From Planctopirus limnophila DSM 3776 (GTDB lineage Bacteria; Planctomycetota; Planctomycetia; Planctomycetales; Planctomycetaceae), in the NCBI RefSeq assembly GCF_000092105.1, contig NC_014148.1:840001-872000 (forward strand): a DNA stretch of 32,000 nucleotides. The letters are read 5' to 3'. The first letter of the stretch is position 1; every line of letters begins with the position of its first letter. A program made the position numbers and the translations under genes. The notes beneath the pieces were generated by a model that was not told where the DNA came from, ran no database searches, and worked only from the letters and a program-made list of their open reading frames with translations. This document shows positions 5,843 through 17,058 of this stretch, piece after piece.

Positions 5843-7138
5843 CTATTGGTTCTGTCTGGAAGTTTCGATTGATCGAGACGACTGGCGTGCCAGGGCTTTC
5901 TGGCGTTCGGGTTTCGTGGCATGCCAGACAGATCGAAGCATTCTTTCCTGAGCGATCGAAAACTCTACGCCACGACGGCTCATGGCAATGGCTGCCGTTT
6001 CGAGCAGGGGTTCGATGCTGGATAGCTCTTCGATCTCTCCGTGCCAGAATCGGGTAAACGAGGGAATATGTTTGGGGAGGAGTTCGCCCGCCGGGAGAAT
6101 CATACTCATCACGCCCACGGCACTTCCCGTATTGAACATGCTCCCCAGACCCGTTTTCACGTGGTCGGCAAGAAAGCAGCCCACCTTTTTCTCACCCGTT
6201 GCGATCGATGTGCCACCAATGGGGACGGAGACATTCGAGTAATCGTTTTTCAAGTCGCTATTGGTCGTAATGGCCCCCAGATTCACCCACGAGCCGACAT
6301 AGCTGTGGCCCAGAAAGCCATCGTGGTACTTGTTCGAGAAGCCTTGGAAGACGGAATTCTCGATCTCTCCACCCACCCGGCACATGGGGCCAAAACTGGT
6401 ACCCGCGCGGAGGTTCGTACGGAAAAGTTGAGTCCCCGGGCCAACATAACAGGGGCCTTCCATACGGGTAAACGCCTGAATGACGGCATCGCGGTCGATG
6501 TAAATGGGGCCACCCGTCGTATCGAAGACGACAAAAGGATCGACTTTGGCAGATTCATGAACCCACAGCGCTTGCGTTGGCCCCACGATTGTGAAGGTCT
6601 GGTTTGGATGAGCTTTCAGTTCACTTGAGGATGATTGTCGGAAGGCATGATCCTCACAGATCTGCTGCTCATTCTCATTGACCAGATTCCATGGTCTTCG
6701 CAGGATCTTTCCGGGTGAGACGACTCGCTTGCGAGATTGAGCCAGCCGGACGAGCGATTCGTCGAGGTGATGATCGAGTAGCAAGGTGGCTTCGAGTGGA
6801 TCGCAAACTAGCCAGGCGATTTCTCCATCGACGATTCCCACAGATTCATCGCTGAATTCCGGGACTTCTGCGGGATTGCAGAGCCATTGACCATTCAGCA
6901 ACAGTGTGTGACCACCAGCCAGCCAGCGGGCATCATTGACGTAAGCATCGGGATGGGATTCGCGATACGTTTCGAGAAGGTGCGGACGAATAATCGCCCC
7001 CCATTCATCCGGCTGCAAAACTTTCAGCCAGCGTTCACGTGTGGAAAAGTGGCCTGTCAGCAACTCGAACACGGGACGGACCCAGACGAGTGGCTCAAGA
7101 GCTGATGAAGCGGAGTTTTCAAAAATTGCCAGACGCAT
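5843..7138 (-). CDS. Putative sugar nucleotidyltransferase / left-handed beta-helix protein (alternative GlmU-like family)
   Basis: The N-terminus MRLAIFENSASSALEPLVWVRPVFELLTGHFSTRERW resembles the alt-GlmU 'putative sugar nucleotidyl transferase' family. The C-terminal half has hexapeptide-repeat character (GPGTQLF.., GGEIENSVF, GHSYVGSWVNLGAITTNSDLKN). Confidence 0.6.
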   Translation of the reverse strand: MRLAIFENSASSALEPLVWVRPVFELLTGHFSTRERWLKVLQPDEWGAIIRPHLLETYRESHPDAYVNDARWLAGGHTLLLNGQWLCNPAEVPEFSDESVGIVDGEIAWLVCDPLEATLLLDHHLDESLVRLAQSRKRVVSPGKILRRPWNLVNENEQQICEDHAFRQSSSSELKAHPNQTFTIVGPTQALWVHESAKVDPFVVFDTTGGPIYIDRDAVIQAFTRMEGPCYVGPGTQLFRTNLRAGTSFGPMCRVGGEIENSVFQGFSNKYHDGFLGHSYVGSWVNLGAITTNSDLKNDYSNVSVPIGGTSIATGEKKVGCFLADHVKTGLGSMFNTGSAVGVMSMILPAGELLPKHIPSFTRFWHGEIEELSSIEPLLETAAIAMSRRGVEFSIAQERMLRSVWHATKPERQKALARQSSRSIETSRQNQ

Positions 7139-7576
7139 GACGGGATTCCCTTCGCTGTCGTGCTTCCTGCAGAATTTTCATTTTGTCGTTGTCAATTTAG
7201 GCAATTCGAATTTTCTGGTGAAGACGACTTTTGAATTCATACGTGTGGTTTTGGTGGAGGGGGAGCGATTTGGGTAAATTTGCTACGTTGACACAAACTT
7301 CACTCCCTTCTTTGAAACGGCTTGATAAGCTGACTGTGGTGCGTTAGTCGTCAATCGTGGATGAAAGTGCGTGGTGCGTGACGGCCACTTTCTCACGATG
7401 TCCAGGTTGGTTTTCCAATCGTCTGAGTGATCCCATCACCTTCCATCTTTAAGAGTTCCATCATGCTTGCTCCTCAAATATCGACTTTTAATGGGTCTCA
7501 GCCTGCAAGGTTACAGGTCAGTGATGGTCAGGCCGATTGCTGGATCACGATTGGAACATCGACAGGCGCCACACGC

Positions 7577-8596
7577 ATGCTGCGGGTGAGTGCCGTCCTG
7601 CTGGTTATGGGTGTTCTGGGAACGCTGGGTGGAACAGTTTCTTCGGCATTCGCCCAGCAGAGTGCGGCACCAACGCCGACACCCATCTCAAGGGCGACTC
7701 CTGTGGCGGCACCGGTTGCTGCACCACCTGCGAGTGAAGAGCCACTGGCCATTGTCACCAGCTTTGCTGAGAAGTATGGCCAGGCCTTCAATGCTGCGAA
7801 GATCGATGACCTTATTGCCTTGTGGCGTGCGACGGGAACCTATGAGGACGAAACCGATGGGCTGATTGTGACTGGCCATGCAGCACTCAAAGAAGGGTTC
7901 GGCAACCTCTTCAAAGAAAACCCGGGCCTGCGGATTATTGCGAATGTGCAATCGGTGCGACCCGTCACCAAGGAAGTGCTGATGTTCGAAGGAATCGTCA
8001 CGACCAGTGCTCCAGAGAGTGACGCCACGGTCTCAAGCTTTGAGGCTGTGCTCGTCAAGGAAGGGAATCAGTGGTTACTCGATTCGGTGAAAGAATCGGC
8101 TGCGGTCGAAGGAAAGGCCATGTTGCAGAACCTGGCCTGGCTGGTGGGTGAGTGGCGCGACGACAATCAGGATGTTTCCATTGAGACGACTGTGCGCTGG
8201 TCAAGTCAGCAGGCTTTTCTGATTCGGGCCTACAAGGTGCGAATTGATGACGAGATCAGCCATGAAGGGACACAAGTGATCGGCTGGGACGCGCAGCAGA
8301 AAACGATCCGTTCGTGGAATTTTGAATCGGATGGTGCTTTTGGTGAAGGCCTCTGGACCCTGGCCAGTGGGGAATGGACGATTCGCAATACAATGACACT
8401 GGCTGATGGAACACGCGGATCTTCGCGGCAGATCTTGAGGCCGGAATCGGCAGATGCCTACACGGTCGAATCCGTTGGTCGCGAATTGGGTGGTGTGCCA
8501 CTTCCATCCACGGGAGAGATCCGCGTGATTCGCGTCAACAGCGAGTCGATGACTCAGGTGGAATCAGCTCCCAATGCGAATGTTCCAGGTCGGTGA
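7577..8596 (+). CDS. Secreted protein with two NTF2-like (SnoaL/DUF4440-like) domains
   Basis: Start chosen at ATG 7577, which gives the signal peptide MLRVSAVLLVMGVLGTLGGTVSSAFA. An Ala/Pro linker follows, then FAEKYGQAFNAAKIDDLIALW...TGHAALKEGF (SnoaL-like) and a second LAWLVGEWRDD...IGWDAQQKTIRSWNFESDGAFGEGLW module. No catalytic assignment is possible. Confidence 0.5.
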   Translation: MLRVSAVLLVMGVLGTLGGTVSSAFAQQSAAPTPTPISRATPVAAPVAAPPASEEPLAIVTSFAEKYGQAFNAAKIDDLIALWRATGTYEDETDGLIVTGHAALKEGFGNLFKENPGLRIIANVQSVRPVTKEVLMFEGIVTTSAPESDATVSSFEAVLVKEGNQWLLDSVKESAAVEGKAMLQNLAWLVGEWRDDNQDVSIETTVRWSSQQAFLIRAYKVRIDDEISHEGTQVIGWDAQQKTIRSWNFESDGAFGEGLWTLASGEWTIRNTMTLADGTRGSSRQILRPESADAYTVESVGRELGGVPLPSTGEIRVIRVNSESMTQVESAPNANVPGR

Positions 8597-8733
8597 GTTG
8601 CTTAGGGCGTACCTGTTCTGAGGCTGGAGCCATCTCAGATATTGAACGCCAACATTGGTATTGAGACCCAGAAGCATTGTTTTTCGAGACCACGACTCCA
8701 CTCCATATGCCGGGCGACATCCAGGGAGCGATC

Positions 8734-10788
8734 ATGTATCAGAAATTTTCATGGACTTTGGCGGTTTCGCTATCGCTGGCATCGCTCTCGCCCGTCTGGG
8801 CGATTGGTGGTCGAGGTGGCGGTGGCGGTGGCAATCGGCCAAATATCTCGCGACCTTCTGGCGGTGGTGGGGGGGGAGCAGCAGCAGCCCGGCCATCCAT
8901 GCCCTCCAGACCTGCTGCACCGACGGCGAGGCCCAGTGCGCCAGCGGCCCGGCCCAGTGCACCAGCAGCGAGGCCTAACCTGCCGACCGCCAGACCGAAT
9001 ACGCCAGCGGCCCGTCCATCACTTCCGGCCAATCGGCCGAATTCGTTGCCATCGGGTGGGATCTCCAGACCTTCAGGAAACAATCGCCCCACGTTACCGA
9101 CAACAAGGCCGACAGCGCCGACATTGCCCACGACGAGGCCTGGGGCAGGTGGTGGTGCAGCCCAGACACGCCCGACGCTGCCTCAAACCCGACCATCACT
9201 TCCGGAGAACCGTCCGGGCGTTGGGACCGGGATTGGCAATCGCCCCGAAGTTGGTGGCAACAGGCCTTCCATCAATCGCCCCGGGACATCAAATCCGGGA
9301 ACCACACTTCCCGGCGGCATTGGAAACATTGGTGGAAATCGTCCCGGAGTAACTCGTCCTTCACTGCCTGAAGGGGGGATCAATCGCCCCGGTACGACGC
9401 GACCTGATATCACCAGACCTGAGATCACTCGTCCTGGAACAGGGCGTCCGGAGATCTCTCGCCCAGACATTTCTCGCCCAGACATTTCTCGACCGGGCAT
9501 TTCTCGTCCAGAGATTGGGGGCGGGGCAGGCCGTCCGGGTGTGGGTGGGGTCACACGCCCGACGCCGGGGGATCTGGGTGATTTTCTGGGCATGCAACGG
9601 CCTATCCGACCAACGGAACCTCCCGTACGCCCATTACCAGATCGACCCGGGATTGGAGATCGGCCAGGTATTGGAGATCGACCCGGTATTGGAGATCGAC
9701 CCGGTATTGGAGATCGGCCAGGTATTGGAGATCGACCCGGTATTGGCGATCGCCCTGGTATTGGAGATCGCCCTGGGATTGGAGATCGGCCCGGTATTGG
9801 AGATCGCCCAGGTATTGGAGATCGCCCCGGGATTGGAGAGCGACCCGGGATTGGAAACGGTCAACGGCCAGACTGGAGTCGACCTGAAGACAGGCCACGT
9901 CCGGGACGTCCAGGTGATATTAACATCAACAACCGCCCGAGCTGGGTGAACATCAATAACAATCAGATCAATGTGATCAGAAACAACTGGGGGAATGCGA
10001 TCAGGCCCTTGCCAGGTCAGCCCGGCATGGGGAACTGGCTCAATGATCACCCTAACCGCCGAGATTATTGGAATAGTTGGGGCGGTAGTGTTCGTTCATC
10101 GTGGAGATACAACGGTTTTCACAGAAACTGGTATGGCCCCAACTGGTGGGTGAGTCATCCTCATGGCTGGGGTGGTTGGCATTTTCATCGCTGGAGTGTC
10201 TGGCAAAGCCCGAGTTTCTGGTGGCGAGTGCCTGTCTGGACGACCTTTGCCACATGGTTCACCTGGAGGCAGCCTCCTCCCGCCGTCGTGTGGTCACAGC
10301 CAGTCTTCTTTGATTATGGGACGGGTGGAAATGTGGTGATCAACTCGGATTCCGTGTTGATCAATGGTCAGGTGGTGGCGACACCGGCTGAGTTTGCAGA
10401 AAGTGCTGCAGTTCTGGCGACAGTCCCGGCACCGGCCAATGACGAAGAGGCGGCAGCGATGGAATGGATGCCACTGGGGACATTTGCCATTTCGACAGAC
10501 CGCGATGACAAGAGCCCTTCACTCAGTATTCAACTGGCTGTGACACGCACGGGGATCATCGGTGGAACGCTCTTTAACGCAGAGACCGATGAAGCAACAT
10601 CTGTGCAGGGTCAGGTTGATTCTGAGACGCAAAGAGTGGCCTTCCGCATTGGCACCACGGATGATCTGGTGATCGAAACCGGACTTTACAACCTCACTCA
10701 GAATGAAGTCCCCGTGTTGGCTCATTTTGGAGTTGAGACGACCGAAAACTGGCTCATGATTCGGCTCGATCCACCAGAAGATGAGTAA
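8734..10788 (+). CDS. Secreted RP-repeat / Trp-rich protein with a C-terminal globular domain (function unknown)
   Basis: ATG 8734 is preceded by GGGAG and gives the signal peptide MYQKFSWTLAVSLSLASLSPVWA. About 420 residues are built from short units anchored on Arg-Pro (about 55 RP dipeptides by hand count). A Trp-rich block follows (19 W in about 115 aa), then a non-repetitive domain of about 165 aa (..EWMPLGTFAIS..QLAVTRTGIIGGTLFN..QRVAFRIG..ETGLYNLTQ..). Only synonymous differences separate the repeat copies, which supports real coding. Confidence 0.8.
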   Translation: MYQKFSWTLAVSLSLASLSPVWAIGGRGGGGGGNRPNISRPSGGGGGGAAAARPSMPSRPAAPTARPSAPAARPSAPAARPNLPTARPNTPAARPSLPANRPNSLPSGGISRPSGNNRPTLPTTRPTAPTLPTTRPGAGGGAAQTRPTLPQTRPSLPENRPGVGTGIGNRPEVGGNRPSINRPGTSNPGTTLPGGIGNIGGNRPGVTRPSLPEGGINRPGTTRPDITRPEITRPGTGRPEISRPDISRPDISRPGISRPEIGGGAGRPGVGGVTRPTPGDLGDFLGMQRPIRPTEPPVRPLPDRPGIGDRPGIGDRPGIGDRPGIGDRPGIGDRPGIGDRPGIGDRPGIGDRPGIGDRPGIGDRPGIGERPGIGNGQRPDWSRPEDRPRPGRPGDININNRPSWVNINNNQINVIRNNWGNAIRPLPGQPGMGNWLNDHPNRRDYWNSWGGSVRSSWRYNGFHRNWYGPNWWVSHPHGWGGWHFHRWSVWQSPSFWWRVPVWTTFATWFTWRQPPPAVVWSQPVFFDYGTGGNVVINSDSVLINGQVVATPAEFAESAAVLATVPAPANDEEAAAMEWMPLGTFAISTDRDDKSPSLSIQLAVTRTGIIGGTLFNAETDEATSVQGQVDSETQRVAFRIGTTDDLVIETGLYNLTQNEVPVLAHFGVETTENWLMIRLDPPEDE
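8926..9030 (+). repeat. In-frame heptapeptide repeat array (ARPSAPA-like, 5 units)
   Basis: ARPSAPA ARPSAPA ARPNLPT ARPNTPA ARPSLPA read from the translation. The array decays into looser xRPxxLPx units on both sides. Confidence 0.8.
9397..9516 (+). repeat. In-frame pentapeptide repeat array (x-R-P-x-I/T, 8 units of 15 bp)
   Basis: TRPDI TRPEI TRPGT GRPEI SRPDI SRPDI SRPGI SRPEI. The coordinates were checked against the reading frame. Confidence 0.85.
9640..9855 (+). repeat. In-frame hexapeptide repeat array: 11 x DRPGIG + 1 x ERPGIG (12 units of 18 bp)
   Basis: Units were read one by one. Codons vary only at synonymous third positions (Arg cga/cgg/cgc, Pro ccc/cca/cct, Gly ggt/ggg, gga/ggc). 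The single amino-acid change is D to E in the last unit. Confidence 0.95.
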
Positions 10789-10827
10789 TCGCTGGTGGTC
10801 GCGTGAGAATCGTAAACTTCACTCAGC

Positions 10828-12747
10828 TCAAGGGTTGGTGGTAGCGTGCTGGAGCTTCTGGAGAACTTCGCGACTCTCAGGCTTGTCTTTGAGAAGTGAG
10901 TTCAAAATGTCGATCGCCTCCTCGCGCCGGTCGGTGGCGAGGAGGATATCGGCGAGAAGCTCGCGGGTGGCGAAGTTCGGGCCGGGAATTGTTAATCCTT
11001 CCCTCAAGGCTGCCTCCGCCTTGGGGAGATCATTCAAACGGACATACGCTCTTCCGAGGTTGTACCAAGTATCGACATGATCTCGCTTGAGAGCTGCCGA
11101 TTTCTGGAGAGCGACCACAGCCTCCTGAGGATTGACTTCGACGAGTGCATCGCCCAGATTCAGCAGATGCAGGCTGTTTTTGGGATCAAGTTCGTGGGCT
11201 TTGCGAAACATTACAGCCGCATCTTCGGGGATTTTCATTGCGAGAAGCACGAGTCCGAAGTCGGCATAAGATTCGGCACTCCGTGAATAGTTTCTGACGA
11301 GATAAGCCGCATGCGTAGCCGCTTTTTCGAGACGGTTGTCTGCCAGATAATTGCGAACGAGTGAAGATCGCGGCCTGGCAGCATCGGGATACTTTTGAAT
11401 CGTATCCATAAAGGCGGCCTCTTCCGACGTGTAGACCGCGTTCCGTGAATAGGTCACACAGCCCAGGGCCACAGCAATCGGCAGGCAGACAAGTAAGCTG
11501 ATCCCTGCTGGTGACTGTTGAGGCAGCTTCAGTTTGTCTGTGGCCAGTCGAGCGAGCTGATAGATCGCCAGGACAAACCCTGCGGCCAGGAAGGCGATTG
11601 GCAAATACATGCGATGCTCGAAATAGGCATCAGCAATCGGCACAATGCTGGATGTAGGAGCCAGCACGAGGAGCCATCCCCCGGCAAGAAAGCCAGTTCT
11701 GGGGAATCGAACCATTAAGAAAACAATCAGGCAGAGTCCGAGTGCAAATGGTAAAACTTCCGGCCAGGCTTCGGAAAGTGACATTCGCCAGGGCCAGCAG
11801 GGGTCTAACGCCTGACCATCGGGCCAAAACAGAAGTTTGAGGTATTGGAATATCACGCTGGGTTGAGTAATCAGATATTGCCAGGGGGTTCCCTTCTGGA
11901 TGACTCCAATTCCGCCATCATCGTAGTTTTCGCGATGAGCCCACATGATTCCGAAGAGGAAAATCAGTGTGGACCAGATGCAGAGATGAAGTTTCCAGCG
12001 AGTTATTACGAGTTCGCGAACCGACTTTGAAAAGAAGACGCGGTCGAGCCAGAGAATCAGCAGAGGTGCTGTCGCCATCAGTTCCTTCGAGGCCATCCCC
12101 AGCAGCAGGCAGAGAATTGTTCCCAGAATCAAGATTTTCTTCCGGGAAGTGACGGCCAATACAAACCCCACCAGCGATGCCAGGTACCATAAAGAGGTGA
12201 GTGATTCGAGCCTCTGGTAGGTGTAGGTGACGCCTTGTGTCTGCAAGGGATGAAGAGCCCAGAGAGCGGCCGTGCAAAGAGCAATGCACCAGCTATCCGA
12301 AATCATGCGCGGATCGGAATGAGGACTTCGTTCAATCACGAGTCGAGTGAGAACATAGACGAGGAGCGTATTGATAAGATGAATGCACAGGTTGACGGCC
12401 TGATAGCTCCAGATCTGTTCTCCACTGAGTGCATAATTGAGGGCAAAGGTGAAAAAGACAACGGGGCGCGTTGACGACCAGAGGTATTCTGGAGGCCAGA
12501 GAGCGCGAACGGGCTTGTAGGAGAGAATAAAAAGCCGGCCATCAAAGACGAAATCTGCGGAGCCAATGTTGGCATAGGCCACTGCCACGGCTGTCAGAAG
12601 AAGGAAAACTGCCAGCCACCAAGAGTTGCAGAAACTCAATAGAGCGGGCTCAAGCGGTGCTTGATGAATGGGCTTTTGACTTCCAATCGCCAGTTCCTCG
12701 GCCGGTAGAACGGATGATCGGCTAGATGCTGATGGTCGCTGGGGCAT
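10828..12747 (-). CDS. TMTC-like GT-C-fold membrane glycosyltransferase with C-terminal TPR domain (PMT_2/DUF1736-like)
   Basis: About 11 hydrophobic helices are followed by about 190 aa of TPR repeats (..WYNLGRAYVRLNDLPKAEAAL..). The first extracytoplasmic loop carries ADFVFDG (compare the FVFDD acidic motif of TMTCs). It is followed by RPVVFFTFALNYALSG..YQAVNLCIHL and HPLQTQGVTYTYQRLESL, which match family blocks I recall from TMTC/bacterial homologues. Confidence 0.7.
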   Translation of the reverse strand: MPQRPSASSRSSVLPAEELAIGSQKPIHQAPLEPALLSFCNSWWLAVFLLLTAVAVAYANIGSADFVFDGRLFILSYKPVRALWPPEYLWSSTRPVVFFTFALNYALSGEQIWSYQAVNLCIHLINTLLVYVLTRLVIERSPHSDPRMISDSWCIALCTAALWALHPLQTQGVTYTYQRLESLTSLWYLASLVGFVLAVTSRKKILILGTILCLLLGMASKELMATAPLLILWLDRVFFSKSVRELVITRWKLHLCIWSTLIFLFGIMWAHRENYDDGGIGVIQKGTPWQYLITQPSVIFQYLKLLFWPDGQALDPCWPWRMSLSEAWPEVLPFALGLCLIVFLMVRFPRTGFLAGGWLLVLAPTSSIVPIADAYFEHRMYLPIAFLAAGFVLAIYQLARLATDKLKLPQQSPAGISLLVCLPIAVALGCVTYSRNAVYTSEEAAFMDTIQKYPDAARPRSSLVRNYLADNRLEKAATHAAYLVRNYSRSAESYADFGLVLLAMKIPEDAAVMFRKAHELDPKNSLHLLNLGDALVEVNPQEAVVALQKSAALKRDHVDTWYNLGRAYVRLNDLPKAEAALREGLTIPGPNFATRELLADILLATDRREEAIDILNSLLKDKPESREVLQKLQHATTNP

Positions 12748-12998
12748 CTCGGAAGATCTTTAGTGTGTCAGGAGGAAAAGCTCATGTGTTCTAACCTGTC
12801 GAGAGTCGGCCTGCACGGTTGGCCGATGTGACTCATGAGCGAATTGTTCAAAGTTTCATGTTTTATTCACACTGGTTTCGACGTTTGATTGAGACTGATC
12901 TGACCGAACAACGAGAGGATTTCTAATGAAGAACTCTGGTGGTGATGCGGGTCTCAGTGGATATGGCCTATGGTTGTGAAGCAATATGCTGAACTTCC

Positions 12999-13706
12999 GT
13001 GACGAATGACAAACCATCCCTGGTAAAGCCTGAAATGACTGACAGCCTCAAACAAATCGCTTCGCAAGATGTTGCAACTCAGGGGGTTCTGCCCGATGTG
13101 GAAGCACCGCCGGTAGTTGACCATCGACCGACGAACTACCGCGAACGGGTATTTTCGTTGTTTGAGGAATGCTGGCCCGTCCGCCAGGTTAAAGCCCTGG
13201 ACTTTGGTGCCGGGGATGGATGGTTCGCCAGTCATCTGCTGCAAAGAGGGTTGTGTGCACAGGTGACGGCGATTGATGTGCAGATTCAGCCACAGCTTTT
13301 GCATCCTGTTACCGCCTATGATGGAGTGCGGATTCCTGCTGATGATCGTCAATTTGATCTCAGTTATGCCGTCGATGTGCTTCATCATTGTCCTGATCCG
13401 ATGAAGTCATTAGAGGAACTGTCGCGGGTAACGCGAGAGTGGTTGGTTATCAAGGATCACACTTACACCACCAGTGCCGGTTACTGGACTCTCTGCCTGC
13501 TCGATGAGTTGGGTAACCGGCGTTTTGGCATTCCTTCCCGATATCGCTACATGAAGGGCTGGGAATGGTGGAGTCTCCTGGAAAGAGCAGGCTTTCAGGA
13601 AGAGCGCCGGATCTGGCCGGCACCTGTCCATGAAGGTTGGCTGGGAAGTTGTACGAATCATCTGCAGTTTGTCAGTGTCTGGAGAAGGAGCGACTGTGGA
13701 TCCTGA
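12999..13706 (+). CDS. Class I SAM-dependent methyltransferase
   Basis: Motif I VKALDFGAGDGWFASHL, an acidic post-I residue (AIDV) and FDLSYAVDVLHHCPDP..L.E..RV. The start is uncertain: GTG 12999 or ATG 13035. Confidence 0.7.
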   Translation: MTNDKPSLVKPEMTDSLKQIASQDVATQGVLPDVEAPPVVDHRPTNYRERVFSLFEECWPVRQVKALDFGAGDGWFASHLLQRGLCAQVTAIDVQIQPQLLHPVTAYDGVRIPADDRQFDLSYAVDVLHHCPDPMKSLEELSRVTREWLVIKDHTYTTSAGYWTLCLLDELGNRRFGIPSRYRYMKGWEWWSLLERAGFQEERRIWPAPVHEGWLGSCTNHLQFVSVWRRSDCGS

Positions 13707-14397
13707 TCAAAGTGGTCGTCTCCATCCCTCGTGGTTCAATCATCAGCGGCATGTGCTCAAGGCACTCGCGCAGGCAGTGGTGAAAATTGTTGAGGAACAT
13801 CACCAGCCATTGAAAAACGCCACAGTCCTCGACTTTGGTTGTGGTGATGCCCCTTATCGGACTTTGTTTCAAGCGAGTGGCATCGCGAAGTACCTGGCTG
13901 CGGATCTGGGTGATGGGGCCGAGATTCCGATTGAGTCTGGCAAACCATTGCCGATCGCAGATCAGTCGATCGATTTTGTCGTATCCTTTCAGGTCCTGGA
14001 GCACGTCTGGGATCTGGACTGGTATTTGAGTGAGGTCAGGCGAGTCCTTAAGCCTGATGGCAAGCTGATTTTATCGACGCATGGCACCTGGCTGTATCAT
14101 CCACATCCGACAGACTTCCGGCGATGGACAGTCGATGGATTGCCGGAAGAACTTAGTACCCGGGGCCTGGTTGTGGACAAGATTGAAGGGCTGGTAGGCC
14201 CTTTAGCATGGACCACACAAGTGCGGTTACTGGGCTACCGGATGGTTTGTCAGAAAATTCCGCTGGTGGGAAATCTGCTGGCTTCTTTGATGGCTTTGTT
14301 GATGAATGTGCGCATGTGCCTGGAAGATGGGATCACTCCGCCGGCGCTGATCCAGAACCATGCCTGCGTCTATATCACCGTGAGTCATCCCCGTTGA
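13696..14397 (+). CDS. Class I SAM-dependent methyltransferase (Methyltransf_11-like)
   Basis: VLDFGCGDAPY (motif I), AADL, IDFVVSFQVLEHVWD and VLKPDGKLILSTHG. GTG 13696 is preferred because GGAGAAGGAG lies 5 nt upstream and it overlaps the upstream stop by only 11 nt. The track start, ATG 13630, would overlap by 77 nt. Confidence 0.75.
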   Translation: MDPDQSGRLHPSWFNHQRHVLKALAQAVVKIVEEHHQPLKNATVLDFGCGDAPYRTLFQASGIAKYLAADLGDGAEIPIESGKPLPIADQSIDFVVSFQVLEHVWDLDWYLSEVRRVLKPDGKLILSTHGTWLYHPHPTDFRRWTVDGLPEELSTRGLVVDKIEGLVGPLAWTTQVRLLGYRMVCQKIPLVGNLLASLMALLMNVRMCLEDGITPPALIQNHACVYITVSHPR

Positions 14398-14468
14398 GTG
14401 CCATTGTCTGTCGGAATTGGCGATCGATGGATCTTGCCTGGCTGCCAACATCTGTTTGAGGTTTCATT

Positions 14469-15608
14469 TTGAAGATTCTCACGGTCACTCATTACTTTGC
14501 TGAACATGGCGGAGGCATTGAGTCGGTGGCGAAGCAGATCACCGAGCGGTTAGCCTCACGGGGGCATGCATGTGTGTGGGCAGCGACAGCACCTTCCCGT
14601 ACTCAGTCGAAACCTGCCGGGGCTGTGACATCTCTCGAAATGAGTGGCAGCAATCATCTTGAAGAATGGACTGGCGCACCTTTTCCTATCTGGGATTCCA
14701 GGAGCCTGCAAAAGTTAAGGCAAGGAGTGATCGATGTGGATCTGGTTCACATCCATGACTTCTGGTACTCGGGCAATCGAAAAGCCTTCTCGATGGCCAT
14801 TCAACTAGGCCGTCCGGTTGTGATCACACAACATGTGGGGACCGTCCCTTATCGTAATCCATTGTTGAGATGGGCCATGGCCATGGCTGACCGCCGGCTG
14901 GCTCCATCCACCCTGGGTTTGTGTGATCAGACCGTGTTCATTTCCGAACGAACAAGACGACATTTTGACGGGCGATTCCCTTATTCTCGCGAACCGGTGT
15001 TAATCCCCAATGGCGTAGATCTGACGATCTTTACTCCGGCAGAGCAGATCCGTCGTGAGGAACTGCGAAAAAAATGGGGATTCTCGACAGACGCCCCCGT
15101 CTGGCTGTTTGTCGGCAGGTTTGTCGAGAAGAAGGGGCTCAGACTTTTACAGAGAGTCTGCCAGCACTTTGCCAACATCCAGTGGTGTTTTGTGGGTCAG
15201 GGGCCGCTCAGCCCGGAGAAATGGCATGAATCTGAGAAGCCGCCACGATTAAAGGTGCTGCCCTGGCAAAAGCCTGACGCACTGGTCGAGCTTTATCAAT
15301 TGGCAGATCAGCTAGTCTTGCCTTCGATTGGTGAGGGCTTCCCGCTGGTTGTGCAGGAGGCGATGGCGAGTGGTACGCCTTGTTTGATCACACATGAAAC
15401 GGCATCGGGTGTGAGTGGTGATCTTCCCGAACTCAGTACCTGTGATCCTCGAGCCGAATCCTTAAAAGCAGTTCTTCAGCGACTGGAAGCGCAGTCACCT
15501 CTGGATGATTCTCGGAGGCGGCAGATTGCCAATTATGCTCGCGGCCTATGGGATTGGAACGAGACAGTTTCAAAATACGAACAACTTTTCGAGTCGCTTT
15601 GCCGTTGA
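14469..15608 (+). CDS. GT-B fold glycosyltransferase, family 1/4-like
   Basis: MKILTVTHYFAEHGGGIE N-terminus, FVGRFVEKKG, and the E-x7-E region PSIGEGFPLVVQEAMASGTPCL. The TTG start at 14469 has GAGG 7 nt upstream. Confidence 0.8.
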   Translation: MKILTVTHYFAEHGGGIESVAKQITERLASRGHACVWAATAPSRTQSKPAGAVTSLEMSGSNHLEEWTGAPFPIWDSRSLQKLRQGVIDVDLVHIHDFWYSGNRKAFSMAIQLGRPVVITQHVGTVPYRNPLLRWAMAMADRRLAPSTLGLCDQTVFISERTRRHFDGRFPYSREPVLIPNGVDLTIFTPAEQIRREELRKKWGFSTDAPVWLFVGRFVEKKGLRLLQRVCQHFANIQWCFVGQGPLSPEKWHESEKPPRLKVLPWQKPDALVELYQLADQLVLPSIGEGFPLVVQEAMASGTPCLITHETASGVSGDLPELSTCDPRAESLKAVLQRLEAQSPLDDSRRRQIANYARGLWDWNETVSKYEQLFESLCR

Positions 15609-15741
15609 AGAATTTTCAAAGAGTAGCCCATTCGCTGAGAAGCTGTTGACTGTGAGTCCTGTGATTAGCACCCGCAGTCTATCCGTCAGAAGAATTGGCT
15701 GCTAACTGGCAAAAGTCGTCCTTTGTGAACCGAAATTCACA

Positions 15742-17058
15742 GTGACTTCACCGGTGATTCGCGAAAGGACAGAAAGATCTCAGCACCTCGATGATCGCTT
15801 GGCTTCTCGAATCATGGTGCGCGAAATGATTTCTTCCCGGTTGCTTCCTGAAACGATTGACGACGGCGTGACGATTGCCGACTTTTCTGGTGAGTATGCT
15901 TTGCCAGCGATTGAAGTTTCCGTGGTGATGCCCTGTCTGAATGAAGAGCGGACAGTTGTGGTTTGCGTTGAAAAGGCCCTCCAGACCATGAGCCGACTGG
16001 GTGTCATGGGCGAAGTGGTGATTGCCGACAATGGATCAACGGACAAGAGCGTTGAACTGGCGACCGAGGCTGGTGCGCGAGTGGTGCATCAGTCGCAGAA
16101 AGGATACGGCAGCGCTCTCCAGAAGGGATTTGAAGAAGCCCGCGGCAAATTCATCATTATGGGTGACTGCGACGACAGCTATGATTTCACCGATCTGGAG
16201 CGGTACATCGAGGAACTTCGTGGCGGTGCCGATCTGGTGATGGGCAATCGTCTCAAAGGTGAAATCAAGCCTGGGGCGATGCCACCACTTCATCGCTATT
16301 TTGGCAACCCGGTGCTGAGTGGCTTTTTGAATCTGCTCTTTCGCACGGGAGTGGGTGACTGTCACTGCGGAATGAGAGGTTTTCGTAAAGAGGCTTACCA
16401 GTCGCTGGGCTGTCATATGCCGGGGATGGAGTTTGCCAGTGAGATGGTCATCAAGGCCAGCAAGGCTCGACTGAAAATCCGTGAGATACCGATTGTGCTC
16501 TCGCCCGATGGGCGAGATCGACCACCTCATCTGCGAAGTTTTCGAGATGGCTGGCGACATCTCAAGCTGATTCTGATGTACTCGCCTTCGTTCCTGTTCC
16601 TATTGCCTGCAGTGGTGATGATCGCTCTGGGACTGTTGGCTGCCCCTGTGGCTTTGTTAGCTGGTTATGGAACCTACGAGACCATTTTCGGCCCGAACTT
16701 TCTGATTATGGCGGCCTTCATGGCGGTTGCCGGAGCACAGATTTTCTTCCTCGGTTTGATTGCCCGTCTGCAGGCTCATCGGGTCGATCCGGTGTTTGCC
16801 AGTCCGCGTATGGATTGGCTGTTGAGAACGTTTTCGGTGGAGCGAGGATTGATCAGTGGTGGCGTGATTTCACTGATCGGACTCGGTCTGACAATCCCTG
16901 TCGTCAGCGAATGGTTTCGCTCGGGAACTGTGTCTCAACCGGCATTGTGGATTCTCTCGGGAACGTTGCTCGTACTGGGCACCCAGACCATGTTTGGCTC
17001 GTTTCTGATTGGTATCCTCGAATTGCAGATTGAGCGTTCCAAGCAAAAGAAACTCTAG
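15742..17058 (+). CDS. GT2 glycosyltransferase with C-terminal transmembrane domain, polyprenyl-phosphate sugar synthase-like (GtrB/Ppm1/ArnC architecture)
   Basis: VSVVMPCLNEE, VIADNGSTDKS, GYGSALQKG, MGDCDDSYD (DxD), HRYFGNPVLS and DCHCGMRGFRKE, followed by about four hydrophobic helices (FLFLLPAVVMIALGLLAAPVALLAGY.. to ..LVLGTQTMFGSFLIGIL). The start is uncertain: GTG 15742 or ATG 15814. Confidence 0.85.
   Translation: MTSPVIRERTERSQHLDDRLASRIMVREMISSRLLPETIDDGVTIADFSGEYALPAIEVSVVMPCLNEERTVVVCVEKALQTMSRLGVMGEVVIADNGSTDKSVELATEAGARVVHQSQKGYGSALQKGFEEARGKFIIMGDCDDSYDFTDLERYIEELRGGADLVMGNRLKGEIKPGAMPPLHRYFGNPVLSGFLNLLFRTGVGDCHCGMRGFRKEAYQSLGCHMPGMEFASEMVIKASKARLKIREIPIVLSPDGRDRPPHLRSFRDGWRHLKLILMYSPSFLFLLPAVVMIALGLLAAPVALLAGYGTYETIFGPNFLIMAAFMAVAGAQIFFLGLIARLQAHRVDPVFASPRMDWLLRTFSVERGLISGGVISLIGLGLTIPVVSEWFRSGTVSQPALWILSGTLLVLGTQTMFGSFLIGILELQIERSKQKKL

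Follow-up and report, generated by a model that had tools for sequence, protein, structure and literature searches.

The eukaryotic TMTC1-4 proteins (CAZy family GT105) are endoplasmic reticulum (ER) protein O-mannosyltransferases for cadherins and combine a glycosyltransferase (GT) domain of the GT-C type, with about 11 transmembrane (TM) helices, with a following set of extracytoplasmic tetratricopeptide repeats (TPRs). They use dolichyl-phosphate-mannose (Dol-P-Man), a lipid-phosphate sugar made by a GT2 enzyme, and are encoded by disease genes, with a mechanism that has only been modelled so far. Actinobacterial Ppm1/Pmt follow the same two-step GT2 and GT-C logic of protein O-glycosylation, and in the Agl pathway of Haloferax volcanii a glycan is built on a lipid monophosphate, methylated from S-adenosylmethionine (SAM; AglP) and transferred by the GT-C AglB. 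In the streptococcal pairs GtrB/PgtC2 and PgfS/PgfM1, a GT2 loads the sugar on polyprenyl phosphate and a GT-C transfers it to exported proteins. TfpW of Pseudomonas aeruginosa, a pilin O-arabinofuranosyltransferase of 646 aa encoded beside its substrate gene pilA, is a proven protein O-glycosyltransferase with a polyprenyl-phosphate-sugar donor; it has a cytoplasmic N-terminus, 11 predicted TM helices, a DDx motif in periplasmic loop 1 and a C-terminal TPR domain that is large and lies in the periplasm, and ArnT is its best template. Full-length prokaryotic TMTC homologues have been noted in the literature but not studied, and beyond TfpW our searches of the literature yielded neither a characterised TMTC-like enzyme from bacteria nor a Planctopirus glycoprotein. 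Here, we analyse a locus of Planctopirus limnophila DSM 3776 within a stretch of 32,000 nucleotides (contig NC_014148.1, positions 840,001 to 872,000; the window), in which the gene of a TMTC-like membrane protein with TPRs (hereafter the GT-C) lies next to a cassette of two methyltransferases (MT1 and MT2) and a GT4, a GT2 and a secreted repeat protein (Table 1). With a probability of roughly 0.55, the core of this locus is a two-enzyme pair for lipid-linked glycosylation, consisting of the GT2 and a periplasmic GT-C, with an exported protein as the most likely acceptor.

Nothing in the locus departs from known glycosylation logic, and it is plausibly an uncharacterised variant of the lipid-sugar synthase and GT-C scheme, joined by a cassette of a GT4 and two methyltransferases. 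The GT-C resembles TMTC1-4 in its domain order and in its motifs (loop 1 carries the acidic motif and, further along, RP; loop 3 carries KExxxT and loop 5 carries E-x-R-x-Y), but it is bacterial, has D-G for DD, matches neither DUF1736 (PF08409) nor PMT_2 in Pfam and is encoded beside a putative donor synthase. Its likeness to TfpW is architectural; the window has no pilin gene and no genes for D-arabinofuranose or decaprenyl-phosphate-arabinose biosynthesis, and the candidate donor synthase is an AglJ/DPM1-like GT2. The GT-Cs of Ppm1/Pmt, PgtC2 and PgfM1 are of the PMT/GT39 or YfhO type, lack TPRs and have Ser/Thr-rich disordered substrates, whereas the GT-C studied here is TMTC-like and carries TPRs. 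ArnC/ArnT (aminoarabinose on lipid A) and PpgS/Rv3779 (galactosamine on arabinogalactan) likewise couple a GT2 lipid-sugar synthase to a GT-C, and ArnC and ArnT count among the solved proteins closest to the GT2 and the GT-C, although these systems have lipid or polysaccharide acceptors and no TPRs, and no Arn-type sugar-modifying genes occur in the window. The Agl pathway provides, with AglJ, the best NCBIfam match of the GT2, but the score is far below the AglJ cutoff, the GT-C is not STT3/AglB-like in sequence and the present system is bacterial.

Results

The structural model places the membrane protein among the GT-C enzymes. AlphaFold2 (AF2) modelled the full-length protein with a pLDDT of 89.7 and the membrane domain with a pLDDT of 87.2 and a pTM of 0.88. 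In a Foldseek search of the PDB with the membrane domain, the top ~24 matches were all GT-Cs with lipid donors (Pmt4, PglB, STT3, ArnT, EmbA/B/C, Pmt1-Pmt2 and AftA), led by Pmt4 (9i5k, E=9e-4, TM-score 0.51); the full-length model returned TPR proteins only. An O-antigen ligase or polymerase identity was rejected, with no Wzy_C match and neither a WaaL nor a Wzy structure among the Foldseek matches, so the fold matches assign the protein to the GT-Cs and not to a ligase/polymerase or non-GT family. The protein has more than 1,400 homologues in an indexed search, some of them named ‘protein O-mannosyl-transferase’ by JGI, and a search with only the membrane domain finds 24,375 cluster representatives (50% identity) at E<=1e-3 and 4,367 at E<=1e-30. 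Three homologues (P0024, P0025 and P0031; 31-33% identity over the full length and 34-37% in the membrane domain) pass the PMT_2 (PF13231) gathering score of 26.1, with scores of 32.7, 33.6 and 28.7, respectively, and their matches span loop 1 to TM5.

The conserved residues agree with this placement. An alignment of 43 homologues has D69, R94-P95, H166-P167...R179-x-E181, K221-E222...T226, D315...W318 and E377-H378-R379-x-Y381 as invariant or near-invariant positions, the last reading E377-H378-R379-M-Y381 in the window protein. By-eye comparison with the published list relates these positions to the TMTC motifs M1, M2, M3, M4, M5 and M7, which in human TMTC1-4 include M1 (DD), M2 (..YRP), M4 (KE[TQ]xxT) and M7 (ERxxY) (PMC7801869). 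D69 is part of the ‘ADFVFDG’ loop at residues 63-70 and is kept, within FVFD[D/G/S], in at least 90% of the aligned homologues. The 639-aa protein is thereby well supported, from model and motifs, as a GT-C with TMTC-like motifs, as proposed in an earlier reading of the DNA letters alone (the original prediction), which had pointed to this loop and to the C-terminal TPRs as resembling TMTC/PMT_2 enzymes. The same prediction held bacterial TMTC-like proteins to be uncharacterised; that stands for this family, in which we found no characterised member, but not for the architecture, given that TfpW shares it.

The AF2 model contains 11 membrane helices followed by TPRs at residues 441-639, with Pfam TPR matches at residues ~490-635; PilW, LapB, PrsT and AlgK-type scaffold models are also among the TPR matches. 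A positive-inside test across the 43 members gave 0.149 Lys and Arg per residue in the predicted cytoplasmic loops versus 0.069 in the short periplasmic loops. With 11 helices, and with the catalytic loop on the outer side like that of every GT-C enzyme, the TPR domain falls in the periplasm. A periplasmic orientation of both the conserved motifs and the TPR domain is thus a well-supported prediction, and the acidic loop and TPRs are not predicted to be cytoplasmic.

A periplasmic GT-C with TPRs could also act on a non-protein acceptor, such as lipid A or the lipopolysaccharide core, a periplasmic or surface polysaccharide or peptidoglycan, in the manner of ArnT, Emb/Aft or YfhO. The TPR domain would then be a periplasmic scaffold, a role that TPR domains have in BcsC, PgaA, AlgK and PelB. 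The presence of ArnT, EmbA/B/C and AftA beside protein glycosyltransferases among the structural neighbours fits this explanation, as do the scaffold-type TPR matches, the polysaccharide-type enzymes of the locus (GT4 and methyltransferases) and the large paralogue arrays in other genomes (L163, L165 and L167), which could build or decorate a polymer. We nevertheless consider it unlikely, given that the only characterised enzymes that join a GT-C to extracytoplasmic TPRs, TMTC1-4 and TfpW, act on proteins, that the motif set matches TMTC and that the window has no Wzx, Wzy or ABC polysaccharide export genes.

The arrays themselves consist of 2 to about 8 TMTC-like GT-C/TPR paralogues in tandem (L163:4279-14234, L165:1-18391, L167:1-9091 and L168:4732-9169), sometimes with TPR-only genes interspersed, which recalls the multiple TMTC1-4 paralogues of animals.

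The second enzyme of the proposed pair, the GT2, matches PF00535 (Pfam, E=6e-28), and the DCD of its ‘GDCDD’ motif lines up with the DxD (DAD) of Pyrococcus DPMS. Four C-terminal TM helices are predicted at residues 285-303, 322-340, 370-388 and 408-426, and the 83%-identical orthologue in Planctomyces sp. DS3.3.33 (L001) carries PF26629 (GT2_TM_C). Its nearest PDB relatives are DPMS (5mlz, 5e-12), ArnC (9bhc, 3e-11), for which the alignment reaches into the TM region, and GtrB. Among the NCBIfam equivalog models of characterised polyprenyl-phosphate GT2s it passes none: the best match is AglJ (TIGR04182, E=1e-43, 149.7 bits versus a cutoff of 325), followed by the haloarchaeal Dol-P-hexose transferase (85 versus 375), PpgS (74.5 versus 370) and ArnC (38 versus 529). 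These matches allow the enzyme class to be read but not the sugar specificity, and membership of the polyprenyl-phosphate sugar-synthase class (AglJ/DPM1/ArnC/PpgS-like), as originally predicted from the DxD domain and the C-terminal helices, is well supported by sequence. The longest open reading frame (ORF) opens with GTG at 15742, and the start codon is probably near 15817-15829, as suggested by the L001 orthologue, which aligns only from residue ~37.

Linkage between the GT2 and the GT-C extends beyond close relatives. In L001 and L002, the block GlmU-SnoaL-repeat protein-GT-C-GT2 is syntenic with the window and the GT2 is directly divergent from the GT-C; coming from close relatives, this synteny is weak evidence of linkage. 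Among 80 metagenomic loci with GT2 orthologues (44-61% identity), a TMTC-like gene directly follows the GT2 in L085 and L089, the latter with the order GT2-GT-C-GT4-GT-C, and PMT_2-type proteins make up 9 of the 47 polytopic neighbours of the GT2 orthologues. In addition, non-orthologous GT2s are divergent from TMTC-like tandem arrays in L163 (25% identical to the window GT2) and L168; both have two C-terminal TM helices and come closest, among NCBIfam models, to PpgS, AglJ and ArnC. The independent recruitment of different GT2s of the lipid-sugar-synthase type is fair evidence for a coupling of donor synthase and transferase, and these four loci support a link beyond simple synteny. Functional coupling of the GT2 and the GT-C is, on this genomic evidence, moderately supported. 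Within the syntenic block the GT-C diverges fastest, with 48% identity to its L001 orthologue (L001:10001-11875) compared with 83% for the GT2, 74% for GlmU, 70% for the repeat protein and 63% for SnoaL, a difference that would fit an adaptation of the enzyme to another donor or acceptor.

In the Planctopirus hydrillae lineage, and only there, the MT1-MT2-GT4 cassette is inserted precisely at the junction of the GT-C and the GT2. The set MT1-MT2-GT4-GT2 occurs with strong E-values in unrelated metagenomes, in the same order in L084 and L138 and in shuffled order in L135 and L150, and a GT4 homologue is present in 15 of the 80 GT2-orthologue loci (E down to 5e-91). Since the set recurs elsewhere, it is a module in its own right. 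The solved structures nearest to the GT4 in a PDB sequence search are MshA, GlgA and PimB'. We rejected an identity with the mycobacterial methylmannose-polysaccharide cluster (GT4 ManT, MeT1 and pMeT3), as the GT4 does not match ManT and MT2 matches no methyltransferase of that cluster, which leaves an analogy only. We infer roles for the GT4 and the methyltransferases in glycan elaboration.

The independence of the cassette raises the possibility that the locus serves two unrelated functions, in which cassette and GT2 make a methylated glycolipid or oligosaccharide of their own and the GT-C draws its donor from a synthase encoded elsewhere. No TMTC-like gene accompanies the cassette in L084, L135, L138 or L150, most TMTC-like genes have no adjacent GT2, and a GT4 with two methyltransferases also makes up the cytoplasmic methylmannose-polysaccharide cluster. 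However, L001/L002 lack the cassette and still have the GT2 and the GT-C divergently paired, TMTC-like genes directly follow the orthologous GT2 in L085 and L089 (L089 having a GT4 as well), non-orthologous GT2s of the lipid-sugar type pair with TMTC-like genes in L163 and L168, and the GT4 and MT2 have no specific similarity to ManT or MeT1. We therefore regard separate functions as improbable and a coupled GT2/GT-C pair as the better account of the linkage.

Ten mutually related polytopic proteins of 430-840 aa also adjoin GT2 orthologues, for example, at L138:11143-13068 (-), L092:2787-7776 and L114:2687-4498 (-). The L138 member, scanned singly, had no Pfam match. The large polytopic GT2 neighbours in the cassette loci (L135, L138, L086 and L102) were rejected as hidden TMTC-like proteins (no Pfam match, hhalign probability <=2%). 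The ten related proteins likewise show no detectable TMTC likeness (hhalign probability <=2%) and may be another unannotated partner family.

The acceptor suggested by the original prediction was the neighbouring repeat protein, which opens at 8734 with a signal peptide of the Sec type (MYQKFSWTLAVSLSLASLSPVWA) and whose gene converges with that of the GT-C at a distance of 39 bp (10789-10827). The convergent arrangement and the quoted repeat peptides are as described, and the repeats are rich in Pro as RP repeats, but the description as Pro/Ser/Thr/Ala-rich overstates Ser and Thr: the N-terminal ~380 residues contain 21% Gly, 19% Pro, 14% Arg and only ~12-13% Ser+Thr. An 18-bp unit repeated 12.1 times at 9639-9855 (88% matches) encodes (DRPGIG)n, and further DNA repeats have units of 15 bp (x4) and 21 bp (x2.4). 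The N-terminal repeat region spans about 50 to 400 residues between genomes and is, for this reason, probably length-variable, while the C-terminal domain is ~50% identical across Planctomycetota orders, with some members annotated ‘mu-protocadherin cell-surface protein’. A scan of the genome collection gave 80 loci of this family, and 82 loci were analysed in all, each with 10 kb on either side. Matches to the TMTC-like membrane-domain hidden Markov model and to the GT2 were both confined to the five Planctopirus-lineage loci; of the other loci, 77 of 77 had neither a TMTC-like gene nor the GT2 within +/-10 kb. Directly upstream, the repeat-protein gene has a SnoaL-like neighbour in 73 of the 82 loci, and the two form a conserved two-gene unit across Planctomycetota. 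L063 has the SnoaL-like and Trp-rich domains within a single stop-to-stop ORF (6557-9598), a possible fusion.

A module dedicated to this protein, with O-glycosylation of its Ser/Thr residues (for example, at 17 [ST]-R-P sites) by the GT-C, is distinctly unlikely in view of these neighbourhoods. In its favour are the close convergent gene pair, the same adjacency in the sister lineage, in which the GT-C is 48% identical, the precedent of tfpW beside pilA and a repeat region that in the window lineage is the longest of the family (398 aa versus 50-250) and has the most [ST]RP motifs (17 versus 0-10). The conserved neighbour of the repeat protein is nevertheless SnoaL-like, the GT-C orthologue of L166 (P0004, 43% identity) is flanked by genes for an ABC ATPase, a TPR protein and a GH16 hydrolase, with neither repeat protein nor GT2 adjoining, and the Gly/Pro/Arg-rich repeats are unlike known O-mannosylation or Pgf substrates. 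Adjacency in Planctopirus carries little information, because the whole GlmU-SnoaL-RP-GT-C-GT2 block is syntenic between close relatives, and it should not be taken as evidence of an enzyme-substrate relationship. A dedicated acceptor role for the repeat protein is not supported by the genomic comparison, and the original prediction, which had itself proposed neighbourhood conservation as a check, fails on this point.

Discussion

The evidence favours a pair in which the GT2, on the cytoplasmic face of the inner membrane, would load polyprenyl phosphate with a sugar taken from a nucleotide sugar, judging by its family, DxD motif and membrane anchor. Some flippase would turn the lipid-linked sugar to the periplasmic side, where the 11-TM GT-C could take it as donor, with Asp69 of the first periplasmic loop as the putative catalytic residue. 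The periplasmic TPR domain may select or hold the acceptor. Judged from the analogous TMTC1-4, TfpW, Pmt and PgtC2/PgfM1, this would most likely be an exported protein, or several. In the P. hydrillae lineage, a mobile cassette of two SAM methyltransferases and a GT4, which travels with the GT2 in unrelated bacteria, would have been inserted between the GT-C and the GT2, and probably elaborates the glycan on the cytoplasmic face by a second sugar and/or O-methylation.

Several observations weigh against this pair. The membrane domain (11413-12747, -) has no Pfam match even at E<=10, a profile of it (A4, 11 sequences) found nothing among PDB sequences at E<=10, and its Foldseek values are modest (E 1e-3 to 1e-1, TM-score 0.35-0.51). 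In the window GT-C the DD motif has Gly in second place, so that half of M1 is kept, and across the family this position varies between D, G and S. GT2/GT-C adjacency is seen in only 3 of the 80 GT2-orthologue loci, and an adjacent GT2 in only two of seven sampled distant TMTC-like contexts. The sister lineage (L001/L002) has no MT1, MT2 or GT4 nearby. No flippase-like gene was found among the larger window ORFs scanned, in line with the original prediction. PMT/TMTC/ArnT-type GT-Cs normally use monosaccharide-P-lipid donors, and a GT4-extended donor would for that reason be atypical.

The most specific version of the pathway, in which a lipid-monophosphate sugar is extended and O-methylated before a TMTC-type GT-C transfers it to the neighbouring surface protein at its expanded [ST]-R-P repeats, is very unlikely. 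If true, it would for the first time give a donor, an acceptor and a physiological role to a family of more than 24,000 sequence clusters, as well as a prokaryotic model for TMTC enzymes. Environmental bacteria very commonly encode TMTC-like membrane domains, often as tandem arrays of paralogues, and the Planctopirus locus, from a cultured species, puts such an enzyme beside its likely donor synthase. This gives a concrete gene pair and a defined lipid-sugar to seek, and makes the locus a testable entry into a very large uncharacterised enzyme family.

Other features of the locus

The arrangement of the genes (Table 1), with the divergent intergenic region and the operon of two methyltransferases, GT4 and GT2, is as originally predicted from the sequence, and coordinates and Pfam matches confirm it. 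MT1 and MT2, each taken as its longest ORF, share 77 nt (13630-13706), which makes the start of MT2 uncertain.

Table 1 Features of the glycosylation locus and its neighbours, in window coordinates
Feature	Coordinates	Strand	Size and evidence
GT2 with a GT-A domain assigned to the cytoplasmic side, predicted polyprenyl-phosphate sugar synthase	15742..17058	+	438 aa; PF00535, DxD, four C-terminal TM helices
TMTC/TfpW-like GT-C: membrane domain residues ~35-440, TPR domain 441-639	10828..12747	-	639 aa; model, motifs
Intergenic region of 251 bp separating the divergent GT-C gene and MT1-MT2-GT4-GT2 operon	12748..12998	.	ORF coordinates
MT1, class-I SAM-dependent methyltransferase, first cassette gene	12999..13706	+	Pfam Methyltransf_11/23/25
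MT2, class-I SAM-dependent methyltransferase	13630..14397	+	Pfam Methyltransf_23/11
GT4 glycosyltransferase (GT-B, retaining, nucleotide-sugar dependent)	14469..15608	+	Pfam Glycos_transf_1 and Glyco_transf_4
Secreted repeat protein rich in Gly, Pro and Arg, of the ‘mu-protocadherin-like’ planctomycete family, with a conserved Trp-rich domain at its C-terminus	8734..10788	+	Signal peptide, repeats
Exported SnoaL/NTF2-like protein, context outside the glycosylation module	7427..8596	+	Weak Pfam SnoaL_2/3 matches
GlmU-like bifunctional UDP-GlcNAc synthase, ‘alternative bacterial GlmU’ type	5843..7138	-	TIGR03991, 351 bits, above cutoff

Promoter and terminator scans of both intergenic regions gave no more matches than expected by chance, and the 251-bp region had only weak sigma-70-like matches at chance level. 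The corresponding locus of Planctopirus hydrillae JC280 (L003) is 99% identical to the window. The GlmU-like gene, two genes away from the module and with its synteny kept in L001/L002, may be a simple housekeeping gene.

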